Assembly: GCA_040387855.1 (NCBI GenBank)
Contig: JAZKCY010000001.1
Coordinates: 846,922 to 910,921 of the forward strand
Direction: 5' to 3'
Length of the DNA stretch: 64,000 nt
DNA from: Patescibacteria group bacterium
GTDB lineage: Bacteria > Patescibacteriota > Minisyncoccia > Phycocordibacterales > JAKAEA01
Shown: in pieces, positions 1,069 to 27,065 of the stretch
Position numbering within the stretch: position 1 is the stretch's first letter
Layout of the letters: each line of letters starts with the position of its first letter
The notes under the pieces: model-generated
What the model saw: the letters and a program-made list of their open reading frames with translations, nothing else
Databases searched by the model: none
Told to the model about the DNA's origin: nothing
Position numbers and translations under genes: made by a program

Positions 1069-4000
1069 TTACTTAATAAAACTGTTTTGGAATTTTCTAA
1101 GTGAATCATTAACGAGACTCTGCTGGGGAGAATCAATAATCATTCTATTTATTGCAACATAGGTTTGATATATCCACGCAAAATCACTTGGTTTATCTAA
1201 TTTTAACTCTTCTATTGATTTAGCACTTGTGATTACCTTGAGGGCATCTTTAACTAATAAAGTTTCTGCTTGTTTTTTAAGATACTCCTCAGCAACTGCT
1301 AAGAAATTTTTCCCCGGTTTAAAATCAGGAATAACAAGTTTATTTGCCCTAATGAAATCATTCCATGCGTCACCATACTTTGCCAAATTTTCAGGTCGAA
1401 TCTTTAATGCTTCAGGAGCTGTATTACTCTCAGTAGTATCGAATCTATCATATCTACTTGGATCCACTTCTTCCATATCACCTTCTTCAACGGTTGAATC
1501 ACTATTATTGTTTAACCCTAGATCCTCAGCCAAATCATCATCTTCATCCTCTGCTGAATCTTCGGACTTATTTGAGTCAATATCATATTCACCACCGCGA
1601 TTTGGAAGTGTATCAACTTTTCTCTTTTGTCCAAAACGCTGGAAATATCTTTTATTATCCACGAATGTCTTAAGTTTTTCTCGAGGTCCTGTCATGTGAG
1701 CAAACAAGTCACCCAACTTTCGTCTTCGATCACTCAACAATTTACGAGCTTCAGCAATCTTTGCTTTCCAATGTTTAACCTCATGTTTTCTAAGACTTTT
1801 ATCTCGTAGCTTTTCTTCTATTTTACTGATTAATCCTGTAAATTTTTCAATATCTTTTTCAAGTTCATTTTCACGATCTTTGAGTGCACCATATTTCTTT
1901 TCATAAGGAGCTGCCTTTTCATCTATTCTTCGAGTTATATCACCAATTATCGCTTCGCGTTGCGCCTCAAATGCTTTCAATGTATCTTGTGCAGTTTCGT
2001 ATTTTGTTTCAAGCTTATCCAACTTAGTTTCGCACTCTCGCTTTTTTACTCGTAGATCACGCAAAGATTTTTGAATCTCATTTTGCTTCTTTTCAGAAAT
2101 CCCCTGAGCAGCCTGCTCTTCAAGATATGCAATTTTACTTAGAATTGAATCTCGTTGTTGTGTAAGTCGGGGTATTTCTTGTTTAAAGATTCTCAACTTT
2201 GAATAGTGCTCCTCTACTTTATCTTCTAATTTTTCTGCACGCTTTGGATCTCTGATTGCATTAATTCTTTCAGCTATAGCATCTCGAGTTTTTCCTATAA
2301 ACTCTCCAAACTTACCTTGAAAGAGACCTCTTCTATTTTTCTTTGAAGATGGCGTTGTTTCTATTTTACTATCTGGCTTAAATGGTGGTATTACTTCTGA
2401 ATCAGGTTTCAACTTTAACTCTTCATCGATAATTTCAGGAGTAAGCTTTCCTGATTCTTCTTTAGGGAGATCCTGGTCTTTAGTATCTTTTACTTCAGGA
2501 GTAGGTTCAGGCTTTTTGCTGTTCATTCCTAAAGCTTCATCAATAGCAGCGTCATCTAGTGGTGCTTCTGGTGGGGGCAGATTTTCTGCATCAGTGTTAA
2601 CTGGTACGGGCTCAGCCTCAGCTGCTGGTTCTGGTGGATTGATTTCGGTTATAAGTTTTGAGATTTCTTTATCTGCATCTTTCAAACCACTAATTGCAAA
2701 ATGTGTACTACTCGTTATACGCCCTACTGTTTTAACATCATCATTTATTAAATGATTAAGCCATCGGTGAGCACGGTCTAAAGTTGTAATAATATTTGTT
2801 ACAGTTTCAGACTGATGTGATCCCTCAAGAGTTTTAAATTGGTTAAGTGAATCAGTAAGACCTTGAAAGACATCGCTTATAATCTCCTCATTATATGCTT
2901 TAGACTCTTCAAGATTTTTCAAAACCTCAACATACAAATTAAAATGCTCTTGATATGACTCTAATGTTCCTGGATGATCTTTAATAAAATCGAGCGTAAG
3001 AGGAATCATTTCTGGAGCGTCAGGAATTTTTTCTGCATTATCTTTTACCTCAGCACTCGTTTCTGCTGCAGTTTCAGCTTTCTTTGCTGCGAGCTCCTTT
3101 CCAAAATTTTCAATATCACGATAAGCAGCATTGAGAGCTGTAAGTGCGGCGTGCAAACTCTTACCCTTTTCTCTAGGATCATGTTTATTTTCTTTAACTT
3201 CTTTGAGGGCAGTCAGAGCGTTTATTATATGTTCCGAACAATTAGTTACACTTTTAAAATCTGCAAACTTTGATTCATTATGTAAAACTACATCACTATA
3301 CATAAGCTGCTCCCGAATGAGATCAATATCTTCGTCTCGTAAATCTTGTTGTCCGGTTATAGCCTTATCGACAGCATCCCCATATGAATTGAACTGCGCT
3401 GAAAAGATAATTAGATCAGTAGGGTTTTGTTTTAGATCTTCTACGGATAAAGTAGTAAAATCAATTAAATCATCTTTATTATAATCAAATCTTCGTGCTG
3501 GTTGTTCAGTACTTTCAGCAGCTGCTTCTGCAACTACGGGTTCTACAACAGTATCTCCTTCAGCAACTGTTGATTCAGCAGGAATCTCAGCCGGAGCTTC
3601 AGCTAGTACTGGCTCTGCTTCGGGCTGTACTTCAGCTACAGTAGGCACTGAAACTTCTGTCATTAAAGCATCTAATTTAGTTCTCACTTTTGTTAAAGAT
3701 TCCTTGATTCCTTCCAGTTCCTGTTGATGATTATCACCTTTGGCAAATGTAAGTAAATTCAATTCCCCTCTTGCTTCAATAACGTGAGACCGAACTTCTG
3801 CCGCTGCGAGTGATTGCGATTCAAATCTTTGTAAGCACGAATTAATCTTGTCTAAAGCTTTCTCTATAAATACATCTTGAGAACTATCAATCGTTTTTGT
3901 AGTAGCCAAAATCTTATCAACCATTCTTTCGAGCTGATCTACACTATCAAAAAAAACATTCAATCGATAAGGATCTTCCTTAAGACTATCCAATGTAAGA

Positions 4001-4419
4001 GCATTTAATTCACTCAAATCAACAGGCGCTTCATTTAACCCTTCTGGAGATTCACCCTTTTTTAACGTAGCTTCTACGTTACCTGTAAAATCCGTAGCTA
4101 TCGCCTCTGCACGGTCATGAGCATCAGGCATAATAGCAGCCGCCTGTTCAGCTGTTCCACCTTTATCTATAAATCTATTCATACCTTGCTGAGCTAATTC
4201 ATCAACATCATCAACAGCAGCTTCTGCTGTTAGATCAACATGAGTTCTAAGTGCTTCTGGTGTAAAAGTTTGAGCTTCCGGCCCTGTTTCACTAGCATCC
4301 AGGGTAGATTCACCTTCACCTCCCTCGACTCTAGTAGGATCTCCTGCATTTAATTGACCTTCGAGATCGCCAGGAGCTGGTTTGAGAATTTTATCAGGGC
4401 CATCCATTGTTGAAGTCAT
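1069..4419 (-). CDS. Hypothetical large acidic coiled-coil protein (1116 aa)
   Basis: Long uninterrupted ORF. E/K/D-rich heptad-like stretches and PEAEP/AEAP low-complexity linkers. No catalytic motifs recognised. Confidence 0.6.
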   Translation of the reverse strand: MTSTMDGPDKILKPAPGDLEGQLNAGDPTRVEGGEGESTLDASETGPEAQTFTPEALRTHVDLTAEAAVDDVDELAQQGMNRFIDKGGTAEQAAAIMPDAHDRAEAIATDFTGNVEATLKKGESPEGLNEAPVDLSELNALTLDSLKEDPYRLNVFFDSVDQLERMVDKILATTKTIDSSQDVFIEKALDKINSCLQRFESQSLAAAEVRSHVIEARGELNLLTFAKGDNHQQELEGIKESLTKVRTKLDALMTEVSVPTVAEVQPEAEPVLAEAPAEIPAESTVAEGDTVVEPVVAEAAAESTEQPARRFDYNKDDLIDFTTLSVEDLKQNPTDLIIFSAQFNSYGDAVDKAITGQQDLRDEDIDLIREQLMYSDVVLHNESKFADFKSVTNCSEHIINALTALKEVKENKHDPREKGKSLHAALTALNAAYRDIENFGKELAAKKAETAAETSAEVKDNAEKIPDAPEMIPLTLDFIKDHPGTLESYQEHFNLYVEVLKNLEESKAYNEEIISDVFQGLTDSLNQFKTLEGSHQSETVTNIITTLDRAHRWLNHLINDDVKTVGRITSSTHFAISGLKDADKEISKLITEINPPEPAAEAEPVPVNTDAENLPPPEAPLDDAAIDEALGMNSKKPEPTPEVKDTKDQDLPKEESGKLTPEIIDEELKLKPDSEVIPPFKPDSKIETTPSSKKNRRGLFQGKFGEFIGKTRDAIAERINAIRDPKRAEKLEDKVEEHYSKLRIFKQEIPRLTQQRDSILSKIAYLEEQAAQGISEKKQNEIQKSLRDLRVKKRECETKLDKLETKYETAQDTLKAFEAQREAIIGDITRRIDEKAAPYEKKYGALKDRENELEKDIEKFTGLISKIEEKLRDKSLRKHEVKHWKAKIAEARKLLSDRRRKLGDLFAHMTGPREKLKTFVDNKRYFQRFGQKRKVDTLPNRGGEYDIDSNKSEDSAEDEDDDLAEDLGLNNNSDSTVEEGDMEEVDPSRYDRFDTTESNTAPEALKIRPENLAKYGDAWNDFIRANKLVIPDFKPGKNFLAVAEEYLKKQAETLLVKDALKVITSAKSIEELKLDKPSDFAWIYQTYVAINRMIIDSPQQSLVNDSLRKFQNSFIK

Positions 4420-4580
4420 ATTTGTGAGAGTTCTTTTCTTAATTGATCAACCTTACTTTGTTCTAACTTTGCCATCGCTTTTTTCAACTCTTCACGATAT
4501 TCGTTTTTAAGTCCTTCAATTTTCTCCAGAAATTCTCTTTCTAGTTCTTTAATTTCTTCTACTTGAGACTCAGTTAACAT
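4416..4580 (-). CDS. Hypothetical small coiled-coil protein (~54 aa), translationally coupled to the 1116-aa gene
   Basis: My own translation: MLTESQVEEIKELEREFLEKIEGLKNEYREELKKAMAKLEQSKVDQLRKELSQI. Its TGA stop overlaps the ATG of the downstream gene (ATGA). It is below the ORF-track size cutoff. Confidence 0.3.
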   Translation of the reverse strand: MLTESQVEEIKELEREFLEKIEGLKNEYREELKKAMAKLEQSKVDQLRKELSQI

Positions 4581-4587
4581 GAATCAA

Positions 4588-5493
4588 TTATACAATGTTT
4601 TCTATACTCTTCAATTCAGCTATCCCCTGTTCTAAAGATATTTGCGGCTCCCAGTTAAGTAATTTTTTTGCTTTTGTTGCATCTGCACGACTATTTTGTG
4701 CTTCAAGACGAGCTGGTACATAAACAATGTCACCACCAATTAATTGAGCAAACATATTTATAGTATGATTTTTACCTGTTCCAATATTTATAACTTCTCC
4801 TTTTCCAATATTATTATTTTCCATTGCTAGGATATTTGCCCGGACAACATCATAAACATGCGTAAAATCTCTTGTTTGTTCACCACTACCAGTAATAGTG
4901 AGTGGTTTACCTTCTTTTTTTAGCTTAATAAAATGAGCAATTACTGATGGATATGCTCCACCAGCGCTTTGTCGAGGTCCATACACATTAAAATATCTAA
5001 ATGAAACTGTCGGCAATTGATATACCATGCTCCACACTTTGCAATATTCTTCACCAATATATTTGTGAAGTCCATAAGGACTCTTTGGCTGAGGAATCAT
5101 AGATTCTTCCCATGGTAAAACGGCTTGATCACCATATGCCGCAGATGACCCTGAATATATAACTTTTTTTACTTTTGCTTCATGTGAAGCAATAAGCACA
5201 TTGAGCATGCCTGTAACATTTATGTCATGCGTGCGATCTGGATGTTCGAGTGATTCTTGAATACTTGGCACTGCAGCTAAATGAAATACATAGTCTGCAC
5301 CTGAAATGACAGCAGTTACTCCTGTTTTATCTATGATACTAAGATGATGAAATGTAGCATCAGGGTGAATATTTTCTTTTTTACCTCCTGATAAATCATC
5401 AATGATATGAACATTAAAACCCTTTTCTACAAGGGCATGCACGAGGTGTGAACCAATAAATCCTGCTCCTCCAGTAACGACAACTTTATTCAT
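4588..5493 (-). CDS. NAD-dependent epimerase/dehydratase (UDP-sugar 4-epimerase family)
   Basis: N-terminal Rossmann GxxGxxG (VVVTGGAGFIGSHLV), a YxxxK context and the length typical of SDR-type nucleotide-sugar epimerases. Confidence 0.85.
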   Translation of the reverse strand: MNKVVVTGGAGFIGSHLVHALVEKGFNVHIIDDLSGGKKENIHPDATFHHLSIIDKTGVTAVISGADYVFHLAAVPSIQESLEHPDRTHDINVTGMLNVLIASHEAKVKKVIYSGSSAAYGDQAVLPWEESMIPQPKSPYGLHKYIGEEYCKVWSMVYQLPTVSFRYFNVYGPRQSAGGAYPSVIAHFIKLKKEGKPLTITGSGEQTRDFTHVYDVVRANILAMENNNIGKGEVINIGTGKNHTINMFAQLIGGDIVYVPARLEAQNSRADATKAKKLLNWEPQISLEQGIAELKSIENIV

Positions 5494-5538
5494 AATATAT
5501 CTATGATAACCCAGTTTTATCTTATTTTGTTACAAGAC

Positions 5539-6894
5539 TTATTTACCAGCGATAGATAATAATTTCTTTACAGTTTTAAGTGCAATAGTTATATCCAGTA
5601 AGAATGATCTGTTTTTAAGATAATACAAGTCATATGAAAGCTTCTCCTTGGTTTCAATTACTCCCACACCATGGTGAGCATGATTGTCGTGATAGATTTG
5701 TGCCCATCCTGAAAGTCCCGGTTTAATTGTATGGCGAATCCCATAAAAAGGAATTTGTTTTTGATACTCAGCAACGAGTACTGGTAATTCTGGGCGTGGA
5801 CCAATAAGTGATATATCACCTTGTATTACATTAATAAGCTGAGGAAGCTCATCAAGTCTTGTTTTTCTAAGGAAAGTTCCAATTTTTGTAACTTTATTAT
5901 AGGCCCTACCCTGCTCATCATATTTTCCTGCACCAGCAGTGGTCATGGTTCGGAATTTTATAATCCACATTGATTCTCCATCTTTACCTATTCGTTCTGT
6001 GAAAAAGAAAAGCGGGCCCTTATCTTCTATCTTTATAGCAATATATATAAACGGATACACGATAAAAGAGATAAGTCCTAACGGTAAAGCAATTGCAATA
6101 TCCATAATTCGCTTAAGAGTATCGTACGCTCGTGTTGGTATAAAAGAAATATTTTCTAAGAACCAATCTTGAGTGATAAGTGATAACGGAATACGATCAA
6201 AAACAGTTTCATACATTTTATGCATATCTACAAACATAATCTGCGAGAATATACGGTCATACAAGACTGGAATTAATGGATCAATCTTTGGATGCTTAAA
6301 ATCAACAACAAGAAGAGATACCTTTCCAGCAGCTATCTCTTTTGAAATAAGTTCAGCTGCTTCATTGGCATGAATATGATCAAGATCTATTTGATGAGTA
6401 AAATGGATACTATATCGTTCATGTTTATTTACTTCGTCATACAGCTCTTTCATTTCTTTGCCTCGGGCAATAAGCACAGCTTGCTGCTTTTTTGCGCCAC
6501 CAAATAATGAATACCCCCAAATTCTCCATATATATATGAGTAGCAATGAGACACTTAAATAAATAAACAGATTTGTTTTTGGAGTAATTTCATAAAATGG
6601 AATAAAATAGAAAAACAATACAGCAATGATACTGTTTGTAATATGAGCCTTTAAAATATTGCTCGACAAACCATTACGTAAAATAATTGCTCTCTTTTCA
6701 TACAGTCCTCCAATAAAAAATACAAGTAGCCACACTATGAAAAGAATAGAAAACGGCACTAAGTGACTATATAAAATACTGTCATCAGGAATCTTTTGAT
6801 ATCTAATGAGCAACGTTACCCACAACGATGCATAGAATATTAGTATATCTGTAAAAAACAAGAGAAATGGAACCCGTTTATTGAGTGCGTTCAT
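5539..6894 (-). CDS. Polyprenyl-phosphate sugar phosphotransferase (WbaP/bacterial sugar transferase family)
   Basis: N-terminal multi-TM region. The C-terminal catalytic domain carries the conserved ...DELPQLINVIQGDISLIGPRPELP... motif of initiating sugar transferases. Confidence 0.85.
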   Translation of the reverse strand: MNALNKRVPFLLFFTDILIFYASLWVTLLIRYQKIPDDSILYSHLVPFSILFIVWLLVFFIGGLYEKRAIILRNGLSSNILKAHITNSIIAVLFFYFIPFYEITPKTNLFIYLSVSLLLIYIWRIWGYSLFGGAKKQQAVLIARGKEMKELYDEVNKHERYSIHFTHQIDLDHIHANEAAELISKEIAAGKVSLLVVDFKHPKIDPLIPVLYDRIFSQIMFVDMHKMYETVFDRIPLSLITQDWFLENISFIPTRAYDTLKRIMDIAIALPLGLISFIVYPFIYIAIKIEDKGPLFFFTERIGKDGESMWIIKFRTMTTAGAGKYDEQGRAYNKVTKIGTFLRKTRLDELPQLINVIQGDISLIGPRPELPVLVAEYQKQIPFYGIRHTIKPGLSGWAQIYHDNHAHHGVGVIETKEKLSYDLYYLKNRSFLLDITIALKTVKKLLSIAGK

Positions 6895-7022
6895 GAATGT
6901 TTTGTGGCTTCACTATAGCAAAAAGCCATAAAATTGCTAGCTGTTGAGGTGAGTTGTACACATGAGTGGTACTTTTTTATTACTAAATCTGATAGAATAA
7001 AATTCTAGTATCCTTTTGTCGT

Positions 7023-7307
7023 ATGGCTGTAGAATTTGAAGAAGATCAATTTAATACAATAGACCCAACAATGGCACGAATACATGCATCTCAAAAACAG
7101 CACTCAAGTCTCACATTGGTGCTCGTAAAAAAAGGGGTGTTTAAAAGTGAGCAGCAAGCTCATAAAGTTTTTTTGATTGTAGCACTTGTTTCTCTCCTCG
7201 CGTCAGTATTTATTATTGGGTACTTTGTATTTAATATTGGCAGACCACAAGAAACAAAATTGCAGTTGCCTCCTGAAATATTGCAAAAATTACAAGGTAC
7301 AAACTAA
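7023..7307 (+). CDS. Small single-TM protein, partner of a pilin cassette (paralog of 8182..8457)
   Basis: 94 aa with about 50 cytoplasmic residues, one TM helix, then a short tail. Shares LVKKG...EQA.K...TM...PEILQK.LQ with the 8182..8457 ORF. It stops 12 nt before the pilin gene start. Confidence 0.55.
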   Translation: MAVEFEEDQFNTIDPTMARIHASQKQHSSLTLVLVKKGVFKSEQQAHKVFLIVALVSLLASVFIIGYFVFNIGRPQETKLQLPPEILQKLQGTN

Positions 7308-7319
7308 TGACATTTTCAT

Positions 7320-8138
7320 ATGAAGTTCTTCCCATCGCATAAAAAATCCGGTTTTACGCTTATTGAGTTATTAGTGGTAGTTGCCATTATTGGTGTACTT
7401 TCGTCTATTGTACTCGTAAGCCTTAATACAGCACGAGTAAAGGCAAAAAATGCAGCGGCACTTGTTATTGTTCACCAAATACAAATCGCTATGGCACTTT
7501 ACTATGATGATTATGGCGAATATCCAGACAATGGCGATGGGTTTTATTGTATTGGTAGCGATCGCTGCTATATCAATGGACAAATCTATACTCAGGTTCT
7601 TACGTTAGATACTCTCAATAAAATCCCCCCAATACTTACATCTGAAACCAACTCATTCTGGTTTTCACCTGCTACAGCACATGCTGCAGGCGAATTCTCA
7701 AAATTCGTAGTGCCTATTGATAACGAGCAGAATGCCGGGGTAATTTACTATGAAGGTAGTAGTGATGAATCATATGTATTATTTCCAGAAGTTGAAGGAA
7801 ACACTACAACATGGTTCGCTCAAAATCCTGGCAATACTAGTACTACAGTATATACAACATCTTCTAACGAAAATGGAAGTGGAAGCGGTAGTGTATCAGA
7901 ATCTCCAAGCGAATCTGAATCACCTAGTGAATCTGAAAGTCCAAGTGATTCTGGCTCAACTAATAATAATTTATATTATTTCTGCGAATATCAAGGAGGA
8001 GCTACAGGTGATGGATATGGTTGGAGTGATGGAAATGATTGTACATACTATTACTGTTCTTACCAAGGGTATCCAAGTAACGGATACGGTTGGAGTAATG
8101 GATCAAATTGTGGTAATGGTTCAGGATCAGGTTCATAA
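7320..8138 (+). CDS. Type IV pilin-like protein (class III signal peptide) with a Ser/Glu-rich repeat and Cys-rich C-terminal region
   Basis: Prepilin motif KKSG|FTLIELLVVVAIIGVLSSIV, with G at -1, F at +1 and E at +5. The C-terminus has SESPSESESPSESESPSDSGS repeats and YxxC Cys-rich segments. Confidence 0.75.
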   Translation: MKFFPSHKKSGFTLIELLVVVAIIGVLSSIVLVSLNTARVKAKNAAALVIVHQIQIAMALYYDDYGEYPDNGDGFYCIGSDRCYINGQIYTQVLTLDTLNKIPPILTSETNSFWFSPATAHAAGEFSKFVVPIDNEQNAGVIYYEGSSDESYVLFPEVEGNTTTWFAQNPGNTSTTVYTTSSNENGSGSGSVSESPSESESPSESESPSDSGSTNNNLYYFCEYQGGATGDGYGWSDGNDCTYYYCSYQGYPSNGYGWSNGSNCGNGSGSGS

Positions 8139-8181
8139 ACCTATTTCAGTTAAGCGTACTCTAGTATATAATTAGCTTACT

Positions 8182-8457
8182 ATGGCAGAGATAGAATTTA
8201 ATGAAGAAAATAGATTAGATGTCGATCTCACTGCCCGTGCGGTTCCCCTTAGAGAAGAGCAGGGACTCATTTTTCTTGTAAAGAAAATGCATCTTGCCAA
8301 AAATAATGAGCAAGCTGAAAAAATACTTATAGTAATTGCAATTGCTTGTTTTGTTATGGCATTCGGAGTTGTGTTACTTCTCGTTGTTCGTCCAAAAAAT
8401 CAGGCTACCTATAAAGTCTCTCCTGAGATACTTAAAGATATTCAGAATAAACCATAA
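8182..8457 (+). CDS. Small single-TM protein, partner of a pilin cassette (paralog of 7023..7307)
   Basis: 91 aa with the same architecture and conserved motifs as 7023..7307. It stops 2 nt before the next pilin gene. Confidence 0.55.
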   Translation: MAEIEFNEENRLDVDLTARAVPLREEQGLIFLVKKMHLAKNNEQAEKILIVIAIACFVMAFGVVLLLVVRPKNQATYKVSPEILKDIQNKP

Positions 8458-8459
8458 CT

Positions 8460-9878
8460 ATGTTTAAAAAATTCTCACGAGGCTTTACATTGGTAGAACT
8501 TATAGTTGTTTTATCGGTGATTACATTGCTTGTATCTATTGTTCTTACATCCATTCAATCAGCTAAAGCAAGTGCACAAGATCGACAAGCTCGAAGTGAT
8601 GTTGCTGAGATTCAGCTTGGTCTTGAACTCTATTACAATCAAAATGGTCACTATCCCAAGCCTATAAGTAGAACTCCAGAACGATACTATTGTATTGGTA
8701 TTGCTCAAACTGATACCTGTATATTTGCTGACGAAATAAAATATGGTGATCCAACCCTCTATGCAATAAAGCCAAAAACAAATCCTGCAGGAGTAGAAAC
8801 TCTTATGGCACAAGCTTTGGGAGCGTTTAAACTTATTCCAACAATTGATCTAAATATAAGACCGGTTCGCACAGTTGGAGGTCAAAATTTTTGGGGATAT
8901 ATTTATGATACAGAAACAGAGGAAGTTATTTGGGCTGAGACGGATACTCTCATAAGTAGCCCTGCGGGAGAAACTATTCAAGATCCAAATGCTGGTGGCA
9001 CCGTACCTGAAGGATCTCAATTTGAAGTAAGTTGTGGTCAGTACAATGCCCTCTTCAATTTTATGTGGTTTGCTATCGGAGGTTGTGGATATCCTTGGTT
9101 TGCAACTCCATATGATCCAAGCGGATCAACATCTGGATCAGCTTCAACGTATGATTATAGTATTGGCTGGGAACGTGGATTTGGACCCTGTGCTGAAACC
9201 AATTACACCGTATCAAATTCATGTGTAACAGGATTCTTATGTAACTTTGATGGCGTTGGTGATAATCCATTATGTGATGTATCAGTAACACCTAGTGACT
9301 CTGATTCTCCGAGTGATTCAGGTAGTCCAAGCGAATCTGACTCTCCAAGTGATTCAGGTTCACCAAGTGACTCTGGTAGTCCTAGTGATTCTGGCTCACC
9401 AAGCGACTCAGGTAGCCCTAGTGATTCAGGTTCACCAAGCGACTCTGGTAGTCCTAGTGATTCAGGTTCACCAAGTGACTCTGGTAGTCCTAGTGATTCT
9501 GGTAGTGGCGGTGGTGGAGGTGGTTTTGTGTACTGTAGTGATTTATCTACAGCACCAACACTAGAAGATTGCCCAACTGAAGAACCATCTGGTTCATGCG
9601 GATATATTACCTACAACCCTTACTATGATACATATGATCCATCATCTCGATGCTATGATACATACGTGTACGCATGTGAAACCGGTCGTTATAGCTCTAT
9701 GGATATGTGCTACAACGAAAATCCAGCTTCATCATCTTCAGAATCTGAAAGCTACTCAGAGTCATATTCTGAAAGTTATTCTGATTCTGGCTCACCTAGT
9801 GAATCAGAGAGTCCAAGCGAATCAGAGTCACAAAGTGATTCTGGATCTGATTCTGGCGGAGGTTGGTGGTGGTGGTAA
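8460..9878 (+). CDS. Type IV pilin-like protein with a long (SDSGSP)n acidic Ser-rich repeat, Cys-rich segments and a C-terminal GGGWWWW
   Basis: Prepilin motif SRG|FTLVELIVVLSVITLLVSIV. There are about 12 SDSGSP repeats, a GGGGGG linker, a Cys-rich region, SESYSESYSESYS repeats and a terminal ...GGGWWWW. Confidence 0.75.
   Translation: MFKKFSRGFTLVELIVVLSVITLLVSIVLTSIQSAKASAQDRQARSDVAEIQLGLELYYNQNGHYPKPISRTPERYYCIGIAQTDTCIFADEIKYGDPTLYAIKPKTNPAGVETLMAQALGAFKLIPTIDLNIRPVRTVGGQNFWGYIYDTETEEVIWAETDTLISSPAGETIQDPNAGGTVPEGSQFEVSCGQYNALFNFMWFAIGGCGYPWFATPYDPSGSTSGSASTYDYSIGWERGFGPCAETNYTVSNSCVTGFLCNFDGVGDNPLCDVSVTPSDSDSPSDSGSPSESDSPSDSGSPSDSGSPSDSGSPSDSGSPSDSGSPSDSGSPSDSGSPSDSGSPSDSGSGGGGGGFVYCSDLSTAPTLEDCPTEEPSGSCGYITYNPYYDTYDPSSRCYDTYVYACETGRYSSMDMCYNENPASSSSESESYSESYSESYSDSGSPSESESPSESESQSDSGSDSGGGWWWW
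9296..9510 (+). repeat. Tandem 18-bp (36-bp superperiod) coding repeat encoding (SDSGSP)n
   Basis: Visible in the sequence: agtgactctggtagtcct agtgattcaggttcacca iterated about 6 times, with synonymous wobble changes. Confidence 0.8.
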
Positions 9879-9880
9879 TA

Positions 9881-12265
9881 TTACTTCTTTAGATCTCTTC
9901 TAAGAGAATATACAGCAGCTCCTAAAGCCAGTAGAGAAAGAATATACCCTATAATTAATGATAAAGGCTTAGCAAACGTTATTGTTGCTGAGTCTTTTAT
10001 GTATGTAAGTGTATATACAGGACTAGCCATGTAGGTTGATTCCCCATCCGTTCTTTTCCAAGCTGGAAAATATGTGGATGTAATAAGAACTGGTACTGCC
10101 TGCGGTGTAGATGAGGCAAATTTTACCTCTATTTTTGAATCAGTAATTAAATAAGAATCAATTGTAGGAATGTTTTTAATTGGTTGTTGAGTCTCTTTAA
10201 GAAATTCAAATATAAACCCCATAGCGGTTCGGATTACCTTTTGATCTCCATCTCGGGTTATTTGCTCTGCTACAAACCTTACATTCTTAGAACCTCTTAG
10301 TTTCTTTTCTAACCCAACAAATAATTCACTTTTATCTTGAATGAGTACTAGCGGATGTGTCTTAGCAAACTCAGTGATGCGAGCTAAAGCTTTATCATAA
10401 TTTTTATATGTATAATCTACGATAATAGCACTCTTAAAACGATCTAAATCAGGTGTAGTATCAAGATATTGGTCTTCCCCACGTGCTAAGACCATCGTAG
10501 GATCTGCTCGAAGGAACAATTCTTCCTGAAATCTGACAAAATCAAATGTAGTCGTGGTTCTCTTTTTAAAATCTGCTGGTGCAAATACAATTGTTGGCTC
10601 ATATTCCAAAGCGTGTACTTCTTTACGTACTGGATCCTTTAGATGATATATTCTCCAATGACCAAAATCTTTTTCAAGCTCCATATGAGGATCCTTTTCC
10701 ATCTGAGCTTTCATTTGTCCTGAAGAAACAATAAAGAAATTGATACCAAGTATTTGTGCACGAACTGCATCTTTATCGAATCCTTGGTTACGAAATACAG
10801 AATTTGATCTGAGATATGCATCTACCGACATTCGTTCATCTCGAGTCGAATATGCGCCTCGTACAGGCACCATAAATGGTGATTGAATAGCTGATTCTAC
10901 AAGAATATTGTAAGTACTTTTCATAGAGTCCCCTGCTTTGCGTGATATTACATATTCTAATGCACGGGCACCAGATGTAACTTCCACATTAAAGGTCCCC
11001 TTCTTATCTTTTAAATAGTCAGCTATGTCTTCTGCTCGGTCACGATTATAGCCAAAATAAAAATCGGAAATTTTATTGCTATTCATAATTGGAACCCAAG
11101 CCAAGATAAATGGGGTTGAAAATATAAGCGTGAAAAACACTTTATAAAATATACTTGGAAGGTAAAATATTATTCTATAGAGACAATAGCCCACACATAT
11201 CGCACTCAACATATAAAAGCATGGCAAGGCCCGGTAAATGTGTATTGGAAATCGTGGAAACAACCGTTCTACATGGAATGCAACTGGAATAAATAGAAGC
11301 AATGACGAAATACTCAATACAAGTATAGGCATATGTCTTTTCCGATATGCAAGAAGGCCGGCACCTACAGTAAATACAACAAGATGTGACCATCTCAACA
11401 AAAATAATCCTATTCCTGATGCACCAGGGCCAGTATCAATTCCCAGTGATCTACCCGCCATATTTCCAAAATATGCGAGCATTGGTAAATACCAAAACAA
11501 GGAAGCACCCAGTGGCAGTGCACCTAAAGCAAAAAATCGAACAAGTCTTTTGGTAAGATGCGGGTCTTGTAACCATTTTTTCGGATGAGTGAAAGCTCGA
11601 CGCTCAAGTGCTACAAACTGAACGATATAGACAACAAGAGCTACCGGTAACACATGAACACTAGCAAGCAATGTGAAAAACAATGCAACTATCGAAAGAT
11701 AATAGTCTCGTATCGATTTAGTGGCATTTAAAAAGAAATAGAGCCATATAATGAGACATATGAAACCAAACAAGTGCGGGGCTAATCCAACATGAAAAGT
11801 TCCCTGAAGTGTTACCCCCATATTTCCGTATTTGGGATAAAACATTGAAAGTAATACTGCTGCAGTAGCAACTGTAGAAGAAGCAGCCCATATATTCTTG
11901 GTATATTTATATAATATAAATCCTAATAATCCAGGGATTGCTAATGTTGATACTAAAATACATAGTTTGAATACTGCGGCATAACTAAGCGGCAGAAGCA
12001 TATATACAAAAGCTGCCACAAAATAAAACATTGGAGGATAAAACTGAGGAAATGGCATCCCATCAAACCATTTTTGTGTCCATCCCCAGGTACTTGGGAA
12101 TATATTCTTTGCATAATATTCACCTATAGCAACGTGCCCATACGAATCATTACCAGAAGGCACAGGAACGCGAATATATGTTACGAATAATTGAAAATTA
12201 AGAAAAAATAAAAGGATTGCACCTCCAATGAGTAATGAAGCGTATAGTATTATTGTCTTTTTCAC
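9881..12265 (-). CDS. Large polytopic membrane protein with a C-terminal extracytoplasmic domain; GT-C-fold glycosyltransferase-like, family unassigned
   Basis: 794 aa with about 13 predicted TM helices in the first roughly 400 residues, then a roughly 390-aa soluble domain. No WWDYG motif was seen, so it is not a confident STT3/PglB call. Its position beside pilins and glycosyltransferases suggests a role in glycan transfer or polymerisation. Confidence 0.45.
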   Translation of the reverse strand: MKKTIILYASLLIGGAILLFFLNFQLFVTYIRVPVPSGNDSYGHVAIGEYYAKNIFPSTWGWTQKWFDGMPFPQFYPPMFYFVAAFVYMLLPLSYAAVFKLCILVSTLAIPGLLGFILYKYTKNIWAASSTVATAAVLLSMFYPKYGNMGVTLQGTFHVGLAPHLFGFICLIIWLYFFLNATKSIRDYYLSIVALFFTLLASVHVLPVALVVYIVQFVALERRAFTHPKKWLQDPHLTKRLVRFFALGALPLGASLFWYLPMLAYFGNMAGRSLGIDTGPGASGIGLFLLRWSHLVVFTVGAGLLAYRKRHMPILVLSISSLLLFIPVAFHVERLFPRFPIHIYRALPCFYMLSAICVGYCLYRIIFYLPSIFYKVFFTLIFSTPFILAWVPIMNSNKISDFYFGYNRDRAEDIADYLKDKKGTFNVEVTSGARALEYVISRKAGDSMKSTYNILVESAIQSPFMVPVRGAYSTRDERMSVDAYLRSNSVFRNQGFDKDAVRAQILGINFFIVSSGQMKAQMEKDPHMELEKDFGHWRIYHLKDPVRKEVHALEYEPTIVFAPADFKKRTTTTFDFVRFQEELFLRADPTMVLARGEDQYLDTTPDLDRFKSAIIVDYTYKNYDKALARITEFAKTHPLVLIQDKSELFVGLEKKLRGSKNVRFVAEQITRDGDQKVIRTAMGFIFEFLKETQQPIKNIPTIDSYLITDSKIEVKFASSTPQAVPVLITSTYFPAWKRTDGESTYMASPVYTLTYIKDSATITFAKPLSLIIGYILSLLALGAAVYSLRRDLKK

Positions 12266-12337
12266 ATCCTAAAGTGTATCAAGAAATTATCGATGAGCAT
12301 ATGGCAACATATGGTATAGTAGCGATTATAGAATTAT

Positions 12338-13474
12338 ATGAGCCAAAAGAAGATTCTTTTTATAATAACAAAATCAAATTGGGGCGGTGCGCAACGCTAT
12401 GTTTTTGATCTTGCGACTAGACTTTCCCCTACTGATTTCGATGTCTCTGTCCTTTTTGGAGGTCATGGGGTTCTTGCTGATAAACTAGTTGAGAAAAAAG
12501 TTCGAACACTTTCATTTGAAAAAATGTGGCGAGATATCAACTTTATTGAAGATGTTAAGGCATTCTTTAAATTGGTTTCTCTACTACGAGCAGAACGTCC
12601 AGACATAGTTCACCTTAATAGTTCTAAGATTGGTGGTCTTGGAGCTCTCGCAGCGCGAATTGCTGGTATTCCAAAAATCATTTTTACTGTTCACGGTTTT
12701 GCATTTAATGAAGACCGACCTCAGTGGCAAAAATTAGTAATAAAATGCATAAGTTGGATAACAATGTTTTTATGCACAGATGTAATTTTTATTTCAAAAA
12801 CCGAACATGCCCAAATAGCGAAATGGCCGCTTGTGTCTCATAAAGGCAAGATTATCTACAATGGTATAGAGACACCTGAATTTTATGATCGCACCACAGC
12901 TCGATCACTGATGGCATCTACACTTGCGATCTCTCAAGACACACTTGATGGTAAACCAGTTGTACTTACCATTGCTGAACTAACCCATAATAAAGGGCTT
13001 ATCTATGCACTTGAAGCTATGCGTGATCTTCCCGAGCATATCTACATTATTATTGGCGGTGGAGAGTGCGAGCAAGCGTTTAGAGCCTATATTCACGAGC
13101 ATACTCTTGAAAACAGAGTGTTTCTAGCAGGCTTTGTAAAAAACGCGGCACAGTATTTACACGCAGCTGATATCTTTCTTTTACCATCAATTAAAGAAGG
13201 TCTTCCCTATGTGCTTATTGAAGCAGGCTTTGCAGAATTACCAACAGTAGCTACGTATATTGGAGGTATTGCTGAAATTATTGAGGATCAAAAAACAGGC
13301 ACACTCATACAGCACCGATCTGCATCTGAAATAGTACACGCGCTTAAGACATATAGTGAAAACCCCGTAAAAGCTCGAGAGCACGGATCTGCCCTTTTAC
13401 ATAAAGTACAAAGTGAATTTAGTAGTTCAAAAATGATCGAACAAACATCAGCGCTCTATCTCCAAAAATCTTAA
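12338..13474 (+). CDS. Glycosyltransferase family 4 (GT-B fold)
   Basis: N-terminal NWGGAQRYV-type motif and a C-terminal EGLPYVLIEAGFAELPTVATYIGGIAEII (E-x7-E GT4 signature). Confidence 0.8.
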   Translation: MSQKKILFIITKSNWGGAQRYVFDLATRLSPTDFDVSVLFGGHGVLADKLVEKKVRTLSFEKMWRDINFIEDVKAFFKLVSLLRAERPDIVHLNSSKIGGLGALAARIAGIPKIIFTVHGFAFNEDRPQWQKLVIKCISWITMFLCTDVIFISKTEHAQIAKWPLVSHKGKIIYNGIETPEFYDRTTARSLMASTLAISQDTLDGKPVVLTIAELTHNKGLIYALEAMRDLPEHIYIIIGGGECEQAFRAYIHEHTLENRVFLAGFVKNAAQYLHAADIFLLPSIKEGLPYVLIEAGFAELPTVATYIGGIAEIIEDQKTGTLIQHRSASEIVHALKTYSENPVKAREHGSALLHKVQSEFSSSKMIEQTSALYLQKS

Positions 13475-14168
13475 TCGGTGTAATCAGACCTTCTTTAATT
13501 ATCTTTCCAGACATTTTTGATTGACCAACTTTTCGTTCACTAAACATAATAGGTAATTCTATATGCTTTGCATGTTGTTTTACGCATCTATATTTAAATT
13601 CAATTTGATATGAATATCCAGCAGAAGCAATAGAACCAATATCTATCTTTTTTGCAATATCAGTAGAAATACATATAAAACCAGCTGTTAAGTCTTTAAT
13701 TCCAATAAGGCACAATGCTCGGACATACACATTCCCCCACTTACTAAGCATTTTTCGCCGCCAATTCCAGTTGGATATACCGCCATGACGCACATACCGA
13801 GATCCGACAACAAGATCATGCGTAAAAGCCTTTTCAAATATATCTTTTATATACATTGGATGATGTGAGCCATCTGCATCCATCGTAATTATTTTTTGTA
13901 TATGAGGTCGTTGCAAGATTATCTGATATGCAGCTTTATAAGCATTTCCTAGACCATCTTTTGCTGAGCGATTTAATAATTCTATAGTTGGATATTTTAT
14001 TTTCAGTGCAGTAACTACATCTCTGGTACCATCGGGTGAATTGTCATCTACGACAAATATAGATATTCCTGGATGTCGCGATAAAATATCTTCCACTAGG
14101 GGTTTAATATTTTCTCGCTCATTATACGTAGGTATAATTATTGTAGTTTTAGATTCCCAAGAATTCAT
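13419..14168 (-). CDS. GT2 glycosyltransferase, polyprenol-phosphate mannose/glucose synthase (DPM1-like)
   Basis: IIIPTYNERENI...FVVDDNSPDGT...ITMDADGSHHP motifs typical of Dpm1/GtrB-like GT2 enzymes. It overlaps the upstream convergent gene by about 56 nt. Confidence 0.8.
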   Translation of the reverse strand: MNSWESKTTIIIPTYNERENIKPLVEDILSRHPGISIFVVDDNSPDGTRDVVTALKIKYPTIELLNRSAKDGLGNAYKAAYQIILQRPHIQKIITMDADGSHHPMYIKDIFEKAFTHDLVVGSRYVRHGGISNWNWRRKMLSKWGNVYVRALCLIGIKDLTAGFICISTDIAKKIDIGSIASAGYSYQIEFKYRCVKQHAKHIELPIMFSERKVGQSKMSGKIIKEGLITPIKIFGDRALMFVRSFLNY

Positions 14169-15312
14169 TTTTTATAACATCGCGGTGAGCAGCACGACGA
14201 TGACGGCGCATACTCATTAATATTCCGAGAGCCAAGAACTCCGTTACCAAGTGCGATCCTCCATAACTCATAAAAGGCACCGTAACTCCTGTCACGGGAA
14301 GTAACCCAATATTCATTCCTATATTTACAATAATATGAGTCATAAATAGTATGGCTATACCCATTCCATACAAAATTTCAAAATTTGAGGCACCATACAT
14401 ACTGTTGTAAAGTATCCGCCAAATTACTATTCCATACAAGATAAACAAAATGACAACTCCTATAAAACCCCATTCTTCAGCAAATGCAGCAAAAATAAAG
14501 TCTGTTTGATACTCTGGTAGAAAGCTCAGTTTTGATTGTGTTCCATACCCAATTCCTTTTCCAAGCATTTGGCCTGAACCTACTGCTATTGTTGATTGAT
14601 AGGCGTTATATCCAGCCCCATGAATATCTGCTAATGGATGGATAAACGTCATAATACGAGCTTTTTGATAATCTTTAAAGACATACATCCATAGACCAGC
14701 AAATGATACCGCTCCAATGAGAAGCACTGCAATAACATGTCGTTTGGAAATTCCAGAAACGAATACCATACCAAACCATATAAAGAATACGATGATAGCT
14801 CCTCCGAAATCGGGCTGTGCAATGATCAATAAGAATATAACCATTGAGTACAATCCAGAAACTAAAATATGTCGAATGTTTCTGATCTCTATATGCCGTC
14901 GAGAAAAATATTTAGAAAGTAAAAGAATTAGAAAAATTTGAGCTACATCTGAAGGTTGTAATGAAACAAAACCCAAACGAAACCAACTTTGTGCTCCTTT
15001 TGCTACATGCCCCACAACAAACAGCAAGGTCAGCATACAACAAGCAAATAGAAATAACGCCACAATGACATTGGTACGTTTAAGAAAACTCAAATCAAGA
15101 TAACTTACAACAAAAAAGATAACTAGCGCTACAGGAATAAATACTAATTGTTTGTAAAACAATGTACTATCACCTGAAAATGAATTCATCGTTACTAATC
15201 CAGCACCAAGTATTGGTAGGGTTGCACCAAGAAGTATCCAATCGATAGTCCCCTTGGCTCCATATGTTTTTTTCTTTAATCCTTTAAATAGCCCCAAAAC
15301 TAAATCTATCAT
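14149..15312 (-). CDS. SEDS-family protein (RodA/FtsW/SpoVE) peptidoglycan glycosyltransferase
   Basis: Multi-TM protein with the conserved ...GSGQMLGKGIGYGTQSKLSFLPEYQTDFIFAAFAEEWGFIG... block that is diagnostic of the SEDS family. Confidence 0.85.
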   Translation of the reverse strand: MIDLVLGLFKGLKKKTYGAKGTIDWILLGATLPILGAGLVTMNSFSGDSTLFYKQLVFIPVALVIFFVVSYLDLSFLKRTNVIVALFLFACCMLTLLFVVGHVAKGAQSWFRLGFVSLQPSDVAQIFLILLLSKYFSRRHIEIRNIRHILVSGLYSMVIFLLIIAQPDFGGAIIVFFIWFGMVFVSGISKRHVIAVLLIGAVSFAGLWMYVFKDYQKARIMTFIHPLADIHGAGYNAYQSTIAVGSGQMLGKGIGYGTQSKLSFLPEYQTDFIFAAFAEEWGFIGVVILFILYGIVIWRILYNSMYGASNFEILYGMGIAILFMTHIIVNIGMNIGLLPVTGVTVPFMSYGGSHLVTEFLALGILMSMRRHRRAAHRDVIKNEFLGI

Positions 15313-16061
15313 CGAGGTAGTGCAATAATTTCAATACGTGATACTTCCTTAACAAATGATCGAGGCCATGTAAAAACGATAGGTTTTGATGTTTGACGAT
15401 ATAATTGATCAACAAGTGTGCGAGATACAGCAAATGCATTACCGTCTGTGCCATATACAACAGCAAACACAATCACCTCACTAATATCTTTATAGGTTGG
15501 ATTACTAAGATCTGCAGTAATTACTGGCCCTGTAGGTGTTTGGGTCAAAAGCTGATTTTCAATTAGTGGTTCAGGACGATCCTGAGGTGCACGCTGCCAT
15601 GAAAACGTTGTGCCTATATCAATAAACGTCCGGGCTGGTACCTTGTCCCCCATATCAAGTCCTGCTTCCATAATGAGAAAGCTTTTTCGAGGAGGAACAT
15701 ATGCGACACCTTTCTTTTCAAGTATTAACGTATTATCAATATCATAAATACTAAATGTATATGGAACATTGAAGGCTTCTGCTTCTAAATTGGGATTATG
15801 CACATATGCAGCAGCAGTATACATAGTCTCAGTTACTTTAAAGGTCTGTTGCCACTGTACTTGTGGATTATTCTCTGCAGGCTTACACAACAACACGCAT
15901 GGACCACCACAGTCTATCCCCTGTTCACCTTGATTTTGCTTTCTGTCTTTACAGCTAGGTTTTTTATATAAAACTGCAAATGCTGGGAGACCAATAAACA
16001 CTATAAGAACCAGTAAAAAACCGCCACTATACCACAGCTTTCGTTTAGATGCCCAATCCAT
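15309..16061 (-). CDS. Hypothetical membrane-anchored protein (250 aa)
   Basis: N-terminal TM helix then a soluble domain with a CxxC/CGGPC cluster. Its stop overlaps the SEDS gene start (ATGA, 4-nt overlap). Confidence 0.5.
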   Translation of the reverse strand: MDWASKRKLWYSGGFLLVLIVFIGLPAFAVLYKKPSCKDRKQNQGEQGIDCGGPCVLLCKPAENNPQVQWQQTFKVTETMYTAAAYVHNPNLEAEAFNVPYTFSIYDIDNTLILEKKGVAYVPPRKSFLIMEAGLDMGDKVPARTFIDIGTTFSWQRAPQDRPEPLIENQLLTQTPTGPVITADLSNPTYKDISEVIVFAVVYGTDGNAFAVSRTLVDQLYRQTSKPIVFTWPRSFVKEVSRIEIIALPR

Positions 16062-16103
16062 AATACGTACAGTATAGCAAAAAATACGCTATACTAAAAT
16101 GAC

Positions 16104-17979: not shown

Positions 17980-17982
17980 ACC

Positions 17983-18873: not shown

Positions 18874-18908
18874 TAGAAAGTACTGAAAAACCTTATTGAG
18901 ATGAGATC

Positions 18909-21622: not shown

Positions 21623-21737
21623 CTTCGTACCGGCGGCTAGCTACTTTCCCCCCAGAAGGGTATCATCGCCTCAACGGGGCTTAACTGCTGTGTTCGGAAT
21701 GAGAACAGGTGTGGCCCCCGCGACAAACCACCAGAAC
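21623..21737 (-). rRNA. rrf: 5S rRNA
   Basis: The reverse complement reads tctggtggtttgtcgcggggg...ccgaacacagcagttaagccccgttgaggcgatgatacccttctggggggaaagtagctagccgccggtacgaag, which has the canonical 5S helices and the CCGAAC...GTTAAGC core. Confidence 0.85.
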
Positions 21738-22149: not shown

Positions 22150-22180
<31 letters not shown>

Positions 22181-22336
22181 ATTTCCCGACATAGCTACTC
22201 TGCGATGCCCTTGGCAGGACAGCAGATAGACCAGAGGTCAGTTCAACTCGGTCCTCTCGTACTAGAGTCAAATCTCCTCAAAAATCAACGCCTGCAGCAG
22301 ATAGGAGACCAACCTGTCTCACGCATATTTGTCACA

Positions 22337-23325: not shown

Positions 23326-23573
<248 letters not shown>

Positions 23574-24995: not shown

Positions 24996-25037
<42 letters not shown>

Positions 25038-27001: not shown

Positions 27002-27065
27002 TGTAAACCGTCCTTGATTGAGAACTAATGGATACTAAACCGAACGATTCGGCCTATATCCACGC

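Follow-up and report, generated by a model that had tools for sequence, protein, structure and literature searches.

This article is about a 64 kb stretch of DNA, from here on called the window, that comes from a Patescibacteria-type genome (Paceibacteria/Parcubacteria-like, with a GC content of 0.37). On it lie two genes for pilin-like proteins with unusual tails, called A and B below. All coordinates count from the first letter of the window.

Each of the two pilin genes is preceded by a gene for a small one-pass membrane protein (sTM). The four genes, sTM1, pilin A, sTM2 and pilin B, run in one direction with gaps of 2 to 43 nucleotides (nt). The sTM proteins are paralogs of each other, and A and B are paralogous over their first ~130 residues, with 36% identity. 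This means that the locus is a tandem duplication of a two-gene cassette, sTM first and then the pilin. Neither Pfam nor NCBIfam has a family for the sTM proteins. In the region 6700-10300, promoter-like sites are fewer than in shuffled sequence, and a terminator scan found none between the convergent genes for B and the 794-residue protein that follows it.

Table 1 Features of the locus, and sTM homologs in related loci (aa, amino acids; ORF, open reading frame; E, expect value; TRF is the tandem repeat program used).
Feature	Position	Strand	Basis or remark
sTM1, small one-pass membrane protein, 94 aa, opens cassette 1	7023..7307	+	ORF; paralog of sTM2 (E 8e-7)
Predicted modular prepilin A, 272 aa	7320..8138	+	PF07963 35.4 bits, TIGR02532 34.4 bits
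Acidic Ser-rich linker of A, aa 185-214, NGSGSGSVSESPSESESPSESESPSDSGST	7872..7961	+	TRF 7890-7953, period 18, 3.6 copies; 47% Ser, 17% Glu
Tyr/Cys-rich module of A: two 23-aa repeats, YYFCEYQGGATGDGYGWSDGNDC and TYYYCSYQGYPSNGYGWSNGSNC, 2 Cys each	7974..8111	+	read from translation
sTM2, small one-pass membrane protein, 91 aa, opens cassette 2	8182..8457	+	ORF; stop codon 2 nt ahead of B start
Predicted modular prepilin B, 472 aa	8460..9878	+	PF07963 26.2 bits, TIGR02532 24.3 bits
Cys-rich extension of B head, aa 185-275 (C192, C209, C244, C255, C261, C272)	9012..9284	+	6 of 6 Cys invariant in alignment with P0001; pLDDT <50, no predicted fold
Tandem array of B, 12 x 18 nt encoding PS[DE]S[GD]S, higher-order 36-nt period	9291..9506	+	codon register, TRF
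Gly6 spacer of B (GGC GGT GGT GGA GGT GGT)	9507..9524	+	translation
Six-Cys Tyr-rich terminal module of B, 67 aa, aa 356-422, Cys spacing 11-8-17-7-10	9525..9725	+	counterpart in P0001
Second acidic Ser-rich tail of B, aa 423-468, SSSSESESYSESYSESYSDSGSPSESESPSESESQSDSGSDSGGG	9726..9863	+	absent from P0001
(TGG)4 encoding WWWW, then TAA stop	9864..9878	+	translation; reproduced in Logan contig
Polyprenyl glycosylphosphotransferase (Bac_transf)	5539..6894	-	divergent from pilin operon; PF02397 E 1e-54; TIGR03025 295.0 bits against a cut-off of 295.55
Multi-pass membrane protein, 794 aa	9881..12265	-	convergent with B; candidate extracytoplasmic glycosyltransferase
GT4 glycosyltransferase	12338..13474	+	family matches; homologs in L002, L016 and the P0010 contig immediately precede the sTM-pilin pair
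GT2 glycosyltransferase resembling polyprenyl-phosphate sugar synthases	13419..14168	-	best matches AglJ, PpgS; all below curated cut-offs
sTM homologs	L001 3730-4005; L002 7759-8004; L012 5225-5512; L013 9968-10294; L016 6046-6354		homology, upstream position

Pilin identity and relatives

A and B both start with a class III signal peptide. The N-terminus of A reads MKFFPSHKKSG/FTLIELLVV, where residues 1-11 are the leader and cleavage (the slash) is predicted after G11. That of B reads MFKKFSRG/FTLVELIVV, with residues 1-8 as the leader and predicted cleavage after G8. In both, a basic leader ending in Gly is followed by Phe at +1, Glu at +5 and a hydrophobic stretch of ~20 aa (KKSG/FTLIELLVVVAIIGVLSSIVLV in A, FSRG/FTLVELIVVLSVITLLVSIVL in B). 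The scores in Table 1 exceed the cut-offs, which are 21.2 bits for PF07963 and 16.3 bits for TIGR02532.

A preliminary description of this DNA had called the products of the ORFs at 7320-8138 and 8460-9878 pilin-like. Both ORFs exist as described, and the shared prepilin motif G/FTL[IV]E bears out the claim together with the two family matches. No further prepilin motif was found in the 64 kb. Pam pili of candidate phyla, which are made of donor-strand exchange pilins, are ruled out for A and B by the class III signal peptides.

The pilin module of A extends to about residue 170. For B, an AlphaFold2 (AF2) model was built on a 56-sequence alignment. It has a helix at residues 11-62, with block means of the predicted local distance difference test (pLDDT) of 75-96, and a small sheet at residues 136-157 with block means of 65-78. 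A Foldseek comparison of this model with the PDB gave nothing significant; PulG (1t92) came fourth, at E 3.2.

The relatives of B were sought in two ways. An exhaustive profile search of 1.84 billion representative proteins returned one ortholog, P0001 (E 1e-233), and nothing else below 1e-30. A word-indexed query with full-length B scored 8000 candidates, picked by shared words in a way that favours repeat-containing proteins; P0001 alone covered most of B, and of six other matches, five covered the acidic repeat only and one the pilin N-terminus only. From a query with the head only and the exhaustive profile search, it follows that B has a single ortholog.

P0001 is 49-57% identical to B, and synteny is conserved: a small ORF, the pilin gene and then a convergent gene for a large membrane protein lie in the same order as in the window. 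P0001 also retains the head of B with the six cysteines of its extension and, further on, an acidic S/E/P linker and an end module with six Cys. Its linker uses another unit, SESESQSPSESETPPPP three times over, and has a different length. The end module is in the same place as in B and shares a VYCS..AP start, with a Cys spacing of 13-7-12-6-8; otherwise the similarity is weak (E 0.04). The second acidic tail and the tryptophan end of B are absent from P0001.

The search with A gave 2665 pilin matches, mostly Patescibacteria pilins of 150-200 aa. The closest pilin relatives carry the source names Paceibacterota, Parcubacteria or Minisyncoccia. They align to A or B over residues ~1-155 only, and their C-terminal parts are unrelated. 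Thus the nearest relatives of A (P0010, P0011, P0012, P0044 and P0087) share its head and have a different tail, and the next-best relatives of B (P0130, P0132, P0160 and P0243) match in the pilin module only. The median length of 272 relatives is 172 aa, compared to 272 aa for A and 472 aa for B. Their tails are a varied lot: a beta-rich domain; PKD-like repeats followed by P10 and (GS)n-F; NCT repeats that contain Cys; an acidic SG stretch with a thrombospondin-type-3-like (TSP3-like) motif; Pro/Thr-rich (PT-rich) and G/S/Y-rich tails; and a 110-aa Cys-rich one.

Pilin modules with grafted variable modules are known as modular pilins, which are widespread and diverse, candidate phyla included (Raynaud et al. 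2021, PMC8179133). A and B, almost certainly modular members of the type IV pilin family, are variations on this known theme. What is local to them are the acidic repeat linkers, the miniature, putatively disulfide-bonded knobs and the tetra-Trp end (W4) of B.

Among the ORFs scanned in the 64 kb, no prepilin peptidase, pilus ATPase, platform or other machinery gene was identified, which leaves filament assembly by A and B unproven. The two could instead be pseudopilin-like envelope proteins, anchored in the membrane or forming short fibres, with an acidic linker that spans the wall like the staphylococcal SD region. Their neighbours are indeed envelope genes, with FtsW/RodA in the window and in the related locus L002, and a class A penicillin-binding protein (PBP) as conserved neighbour in L001. 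The best NCBIfam similarity is also to the N-terminus of the GspG pseudopilin, at 41 bits, below its cut-off. Pilin genes are however often distant from the machinery genes, and the heads of A and B belong to a very abundant Patescibacteria pilin family. In addition, variable grafted C-terminal modules typify modular pilins that are displayed on pili (PMC8179133). A role confined to the envelope is judged improbable.

Repeat linkers, cysteine modules and the tetra-Trp end

In the acidic linker of A, ~3 SESPSE units can be recognized at 7896-7949. The 23-aa repeats that come after it follow the form YYxCxYQG..GYGWSxGxxC, and this module has no family match. A has six cysteines (at 77, 83, 222, 241, 246 and 264) and ends in GNGSGSGS.

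The tail of B consists, in order, of the Cys-rich head extension, the PS[DE]S[GD]S array, Gly6, the six-Cys Tyr-rich module, a second acidic S/E/Y tail and GGGWWWW. B has 14 cysteines. The net charge is -14 for the first linker and -11 for the tail, and the last 50 aa are 46% Ser, with no Lys or Arg and no hydrophobic stretch. A screen of the six-frame ORFs of at least 60 aa in the 64 kb for runs of W or acidic repeats of the S[DE] type matched A and B only.

Pfam and NCBIfam have no match for the extra C-terminal modules of either protein, and outside the pilin module, these parts included, the AF2 model of B stays below a pLDDT of 50. The even numbers of cysteines and the similar six-Cys spacing in P0001 would fit a disulfide-bonded knob.

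TRF places the array of B at 9289-9503, with period 36, 6.0 copies, 84% matches and a score of 276, and also reports it with period 18 and 11.7 copies. Of the codon differences over the 66 pairs of units, 192 are synonymous and 31 non-synonymous, so that the peptide is kept while the DNA is partly scrambled. The longest exact repeat within the array measures 47 nt, with copies 108 nt apart.

The preliminary description had listed low-complexity acidic Ser-rich tails and Cys/Tyr-rich modules, all of which are present. It had also placed an 18/36-bp array at 9296-9510, which is right to within a few bases, and called its variation synonymous, as the codon counts for the most part bear out. Its further suggestion that the array is prone to slippage is plausible: there is the 47-nt exact repeat, an independent assembly breaks at this spot, and P0001 differs in linker unit and length. 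From its sequence, the array is a plausible substrate for slippage or for recombination.

The independent assembly consists of the Logan contigs of run SRR26324620, assembled from short reads with k=31. Two of these match the window at 100% identity, one over 1320-9359 and the other over 9473-19474. They leave 113 nt uncovered inside the array of B, where 31-mers occur more than once (starting at 9348-9364 and 9456-9472). The second contig covers B from the C-terminal module through the second acidic tail and the TGG codons to the TAA, and the W4 tail is thus reproduced by a second assembler. Given the break within the array, the copy number of 12 units comes from the window assembly alone. 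On the question whether the repeat region could be an assembly artefact, which the preliminary description had raised, the flanks of the array are thus identical in both assemblies, and the number of units inside it is that of the window assembly only.

It is still worth asking if the copy number, or the W4 end, stems from a technical error, in which case the true end of B would be poly-Gly (…GGGGGGGNITSLDLF). The k=31 assembly does fail to cross the array, ending at 9359 and restarting at 9473. A shift of one base in GGT T GGT GGT GGT GGT would also turn W4 into G4 and lengthen the ORF by 8 codons. Against this, the Logan contigs show the same bases as the window on either side of the array, TGG codons and TAA included, and the exact repeat of 47 nt is shorter than ordinary reads. 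The shifted frame would overlap the convergent gene by 23 nt, and the extra base sits in a TT dinucleotide and not in a long homopolymer. An artefact is judged very improbable.

The final codons of B are GGC GGA GGT TGG TGG TGG TGG TAA. The protein does end in GGGWWWW, as the preliminary description had it, in the translation as well as in the Logan contig. B is the sole ORF in the six-frame screen with a run of at least three W. A shift of one base would make the (TGG)4 part of a (GGT)n glycine tract: read in this way, it gives GGGGNITSLDLF and then a stop. Deleting one T yields seven glycines, three in frame and four from the shifted tract, with the type of codon found in the Gly6 spacer upstream.

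The preliminary description took the tetra-Trp end for a membrane or cell-wall anchoring or sorting signal, and proposed a search for WWWW ends in other genomes. However, WWWW is absent from the only ortholog, P0001, which stops in ...CFYGSGSE, and no W run of at least three is present in any of the other ~270 pilin relatives examined. Known C-terminal sorting signals (LPXTG, PEP-CTERM, GlyGly-CTERM) have a hydrophobic helix and a basic tail, of which there is no sign beside WWWW. Reference genomes were searched for GGNGGN(TGG)4 followed by a stop. Among 120 sites sampled from the matches listed there were no credible protein ends, which is a weak negative; 101 of the 120 are longer TGG tracts in high-GC genomes.

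Going by these sequences, W4 is very probably not a conserved sorting motif, and a tempting false lead is thereby removed. The simplest reading is that it would be a recent, lineage-specific ending that arose from a Gly/Ser-rich terminus by a frame change or by triplet slippage. It may still have a role locally, perhaps as a sticky aromatic cap.

G/S-rich ends that are capped or interrupted by aromatics also occur in several relatives (P0132, P0011, P0012, L012 4613-5203 and L013 9376-9975), with endings such as ...GSGSGSGF, ...GTYTY, ...GGYYYGG..., ...GGSY and ...GSGY. Aromatic capping of G/S-rich pilin ends may be a weak recurring theme, with GGGWWWW as its extreme.

Neighbouring genes and the glycosylation question

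The cassettes are flanked by the Bac_transf gene and the gene for the 794-aa membrane protein. Beyond these lie the GT4 and GT2 glycosyltransferase (GT) genes, FtsW/RodA, a conserved 250-aa protein, a pyruvyl transferase and further GT genes.

Homologs of the sTM proteins are found directly upstream of related pilin genes in L001, L002, L012, L013 and L016. Members of this family are one-pass proteins of 80-105 aa that share a loose motif, roughly L..LVKKG(I/V)V.S...A(N/Q)..LL, followed by a helix and ..PPE(I/L). Wherever an sTM-pilin pair was recovered, the sTM gene is the upstream one. TfpX/Y/Z, which have three helices and 170-245 aa, were considered as a model for sTM and ruled out.

The set of sTM, pilin and ~790-aa membrane protein recurs around pilin P0130 in L002/L003, with 40% identity between the membrane protein there and that of the window. 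In L012, L013 and L016 the sTM-pilin pair is again convergent with, and adjacent to, a gene for a ~790-aa protein (27-29% identity). Bac_transf, GT4, GT2 and FtsW/RodA genes accompany this recurring arrangement. A scan of a genome collection found no relatives of the 794-aa protein; a metagenome scan found 16 loci at 27-34% identity (the best segment reached 48%, in one fragmentary match). In the loci recovered, the ~790-aa gene is usually followed by a pilin or a GT2 gene. An acidic (GSGSDS)n repeat closes the L016 pilin. The P0010 locus has a PT-tailed pilin, and the slot after it, that of the ~790-aa protein, is taken by a recognized MptA_B/GT87 membrane mannosyltransferase.

The 794-aa protein is predicted to have ~11 helices in residues 1-390, then a soluble domain of ~375 aa on the outside (391-767), and a last helix at 768-786. 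The first outside loop is strongly conserved in the family (alignment A3), as G-x-D...H...IFPSxWGW...GMPFPQFYPP. G38 and D40 of this loop (Gly38-x-Asp40) are invariant in 12 homologs, as is GMPFPQFY.P at residues 69-78, with P77 in at least 90%. These features fit a membrane glycosyltransferase that would use lipid-linked sugars outside the cytoplasm.

The GT2 genes point in a similar direction. In six other loci a GT2 gene comes after the ~790-aa homolog, and five of these six GT2 proteins were scanned. Their best matches, all sub-threshold, are PpgS, ArnC, a dolichyl-P hexose transferase, AglJ and PgfS. One GT2 beside a ~790-aa homolog is fused to a GtrA/DPMS domain (GtrA_DPMS_TM, E 1.4e-22).

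The favoured account brings these elements together, and as a whole it has slightly better than an even chance of being right. A prepilin peptidase would cleave A and B after the Gly, and the alpha-1 helix would keep the protein in the membrane or in a pilus. The acidic linker would act as a spacer, extended and disordered, and hold out the disulfide-bonded knob as an adhesion module, in the way that other modular pilins present grafted domains. The Ser-rich linkers would be O-glycosylated outside the cytoplasm, with lipid-linked donors from the neighbouring Bac_transf/GT4 and/or GT2 enzymes and transfer by the ~790-aa membrane protein. The array would change in length by slippage or recombination, which would tune the reach of the tail or vary the surface. 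The WWWW end would be an accident of recent date in this lineage, produced by a (GGT)n/(TGG)n trinucleotide tract.

Two parts of this account are more tentative than the rest. An adhesive role for the knobs is possible, at somewhat less than an even chance. Much the same holds for glycosylation of the Ser-rich tails, which gene context suggests without tipping the balance in its favour. The route that the neighbourhood suggests, by lipid-linked donors and a membrane enzyme outside the cytoplasm, is plausible.

Several results weigh against the favoured account. The 794-aa protein has no significant match in Pfam, NCBIfam or PDB, as a single sequence or as a profile of 2 or 12 sequences. The best sub-significant matches are AftA (8if8_C), an arabinofuranosyltransferase, with E 4.8, and DUF6541, which 2 of 12 members match with E 0.033. 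Alignment of the family by hhalign to E. coli ArnT, and to a LA_3751-like protein of 490 aa in the window, gave a probability of ~0.2% in both cases. A single-sequence AF2 model, with a mean pLDDT of 42, is unusable. As the family is placed by neither sequence, profile nor structure methods, the case for glycosylation continues to come from gene context. The pilins of L012 and L013, moreover, stop after a short G/S stretch and have no long Ser-rich tail, and for the Cys-rich modules no fold is predicted and the sequence is just weakly conserved. The missing pilus machinery and peptidase genes also count here. Finally, the locus may merely make a wall polymer, the pilins being located there for another reason.

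This last thought leads to an alternative in which A and B are modular pilins with unmodified acidic stretches, serving as flexible negative spacers or for binding cations, and the glycan genes serve a wall or surface polymer only. Low-complexity linkers are widespread and do not require modification, and the charges of linker and tail noted above would suit such a role. The 794-aa protein belongs to no assignable transferase family, and FtsW/RodA, a pyruvyl transferase and several GT2/GT4 genes are typical of polymer synthesis. What speaks for glycosylation instead is that the sTM-pilin pair stays beside the ~790-aa protein, GT4 and GT2 in lineages at 27-40% identity, and that in one lineage a recognized membrane mannosyltransferase occupies the slot beside a PT-tailed pilin. 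Extracytoplasmic Ser/Thr-rich disordered regions are also glycosylated wherever this was tested in streptococci. This alternative with unmodified tails is considered rather unlikely.

The preliminary description had a different glycosylation route in mind, by analogy to the staphylococcal Sdr proteins: SD repeats modified by cytoplasmic GT-B enzymes like SdgA/SdgB, with the tetra-Trp end as a conserved anchoring or sorting signal. There is a GT4 gene, of GT-B fold, in the locus, and one immediately upstream of the sTM-pilin pair in three related loci. Its C-terminal domain has a weak similarity to SdgB (E 3.7e-10). Trp-rich peptides in general partition into membrane interfaces.

The scores nevertheless tell against this model. 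The window GT4 reaches 39.1 bits for SdgB, and the GT4 of L002 36.5 bits for SdgA, where the cut-off is 800 in both cases. The best matches of the window GT4 are by far GT4 enzymes of lipid-linked glycan assembly, with stp2 at 145 bits, followed by TuaC, PglH/J and WbnH. The NCBIfam models for the adhesins themselves score 41.6 bits against a cut-off of 1700 (SdrC), 38.8 against 2500 (SdrD), 33.1 against 999 (ClfB) and 25 against 1150 (ClfA); as far as the sequence goes, these matches are compositional. LPXTG is absent, and the repeat unit is PSDSGS, a hexapeptide with Pro, instead of an (SD)n dipeptide region. Together with the findings on WWWW given above, this makes the staphylococcal model the least probable of all readings, with hardly any chance of being right.

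A more far-reaching idea is that sTM, the modular pilin and the ~790-aa protein, with Bac_transf, GT4, GT2 and FtsW/RodA, form a previously undescribed module of Patescibacteria for glycosylating and displaying pilin tails. An unrecognized family of extracytoplasmic glycosyltransferases would then decorate hypervariable Ser-, Thr- and Pro-rich tails, with sTM as a pilin-specific partner, and the tails would attach to host cells. This is a rather doubtful proposition.

Attachment to other microbes is the way of life of Patescibacteria, and among their attachment organelles pili have the best support. The locus illustrates how pilins diversify in this group, with a conserved module and fast-evolving tails made of repeat linkers and tiny, putatively disulfide-bonded knobs. 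Such variable tails are likely to determine what a cell sticks to. With sTM and the unclassified ~790-aa protein, a phylum in which genetics hardly exists gains two testable candidates for a part in pilin maturation or glycosylation, and the conserved set of uncharacterized partner genes merits follow-up.

The wider surroundings contain some further data. The conserved ~250-aa protein, which has no family match, lies directly downstream of FtsW/RodA in the window (15309-16061, - strand) and in L002 (13442-14188, - strand); the P0010 contig has a 257-aa ORF in this position. Beyond the Bac_transf gene, the window encodes a 1116-aa protein without a family match (1069-4419, - strand). In a comparable position, L002 has a charged Glu/Lys-rich protein of 790 aa, also without a family match (2643-5015, - strand). 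The glycan locus ends with the 490-aa protein already mentioned (19809-21281, + strand), which is weakly similar to the LA_3751/LA_3752 family of putative membrane glycosyltransferases (E 3e-11, below cut-off).

Further along, 23S rRNA (with a group I intron at 22332-22549) and 5S rRNA are present at 21628-25564. The 16S rRNA is not adjacent to these, and no tRNA gene was found in the whole 64 kb. Between 23S rRNA and rplL/rplJ lies an island of ~3.6 kb (26200-29800) with a GC content of 0.50-0.65 and overlapping ORFs on both strands. It has no Rfam match, and two of its ORFs that were tested have no Pfam match; it could be a foreign insertion or an assembly chimera. At 54496-58014 (- strand), the window encodes a class I aminoacyl-tRNA synthetase of 1172 aa (tRNA-synt_1 and Anticodon_1) with a histidine-phosphatase domain inserted into the catalytic domain (His_Phos_1, residues 521-683, E 2.3e-31).

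Comparison with known systems

The staphylococcal adhesins ClfA/B and SdrC/D/E, with SdgA/SdgB, resemble A and B in having an acidic Ser-Asp-rich repeat that separates a folded region from the cell-proximal or distal end, synonymous variation of the DNA repeat and a variable repeat length. Unlike these adhesins, A and B have a hexapeptide with Pro and Gly and not an SD dipeptide, no YSIRK/Sec signal, no A domain and no LPXTG, and no SdgA/B equivalent is present.

Streptococci offer a further comparison. Their GtrB/PgtC2 and PgfS/PgfM1 systems glycosylate extracytoplasmic Ser/Thr-rich disordered regions, and the pgf cluster also codes for its substrate adhesins (bioRxiv 10.1101/2024.05.05.592596). 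GtrB/PgtC2 and Pgf (PgfS-PgfM1-PgfE-PgfM2, with the adhesins Cnm and WapA) share with this locus a GT2 that resembles polyprenyl-P-sugar synthases, an epimerase, a large membrane protein and co-encoded Ser-rich substrates, in which the Ser-rich segment comes after a folded domain. The source organism is probably single-membraned, like streptococci. It differs from them in that the 794-aa protein has no match to the YfhO family, the acceptor would be rich in Ser/Asp/Glu/Pro and not in Ser/Thr, and the substrates would be pilins instead of sortase-anchored adhesins or membrane enzymes.

The pilin glycosylation islands of P. aeruginosa (pilA-tfpO, pilA-tfpW(-tfpX)) and Neisseria PglL also bear comparison. 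In P. aeruginosa, TfpW adjoins pilA (bioRxiv 10.1101/2020.04.19.049825). The likeness lies in a big multi-pass membrane protein gene beside the pilin gene, with genes for lipid-linked sugars nearby, and in Ser/Thr-rich pilin segments as candidate acceptors. A large membrane protein beside the pilin is found in the window, L002/L003, L012, L013 and L016, and in the P0010 locus the MptA_B/GT87 protein takes this slot. The differences are that the 794-aa protein has no match to Wzy_C/O-antigen-ligase models or to those GT-C models that were tried, and that its gene is convergent with the pilin gene and not co-directional. The accessory proteins TfpX/Y/Z have three membrane helices and 170-245 aa (PMC11841053), as opposed to one pass and 80-105 aa for the small proteins described here.

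The nearest comparison is that with the modular pilins themselves, such as PilB/PilC of S. sanguinis and CofB of enterotoxigenic E. coli (PMC8179133). There too, the C-terminal additions vary greatly between relatives. The additions in A and B are not recognizable domains, however, but acidic Ser-rich linkers and Cys/Tyr-rich knobs of ~45-65 aa. The linker measures 30-73 aa where other modular pilins have a short loop, and in the recovered loci the gene for a small one-pass membrane protein always precedes the pilin gene.

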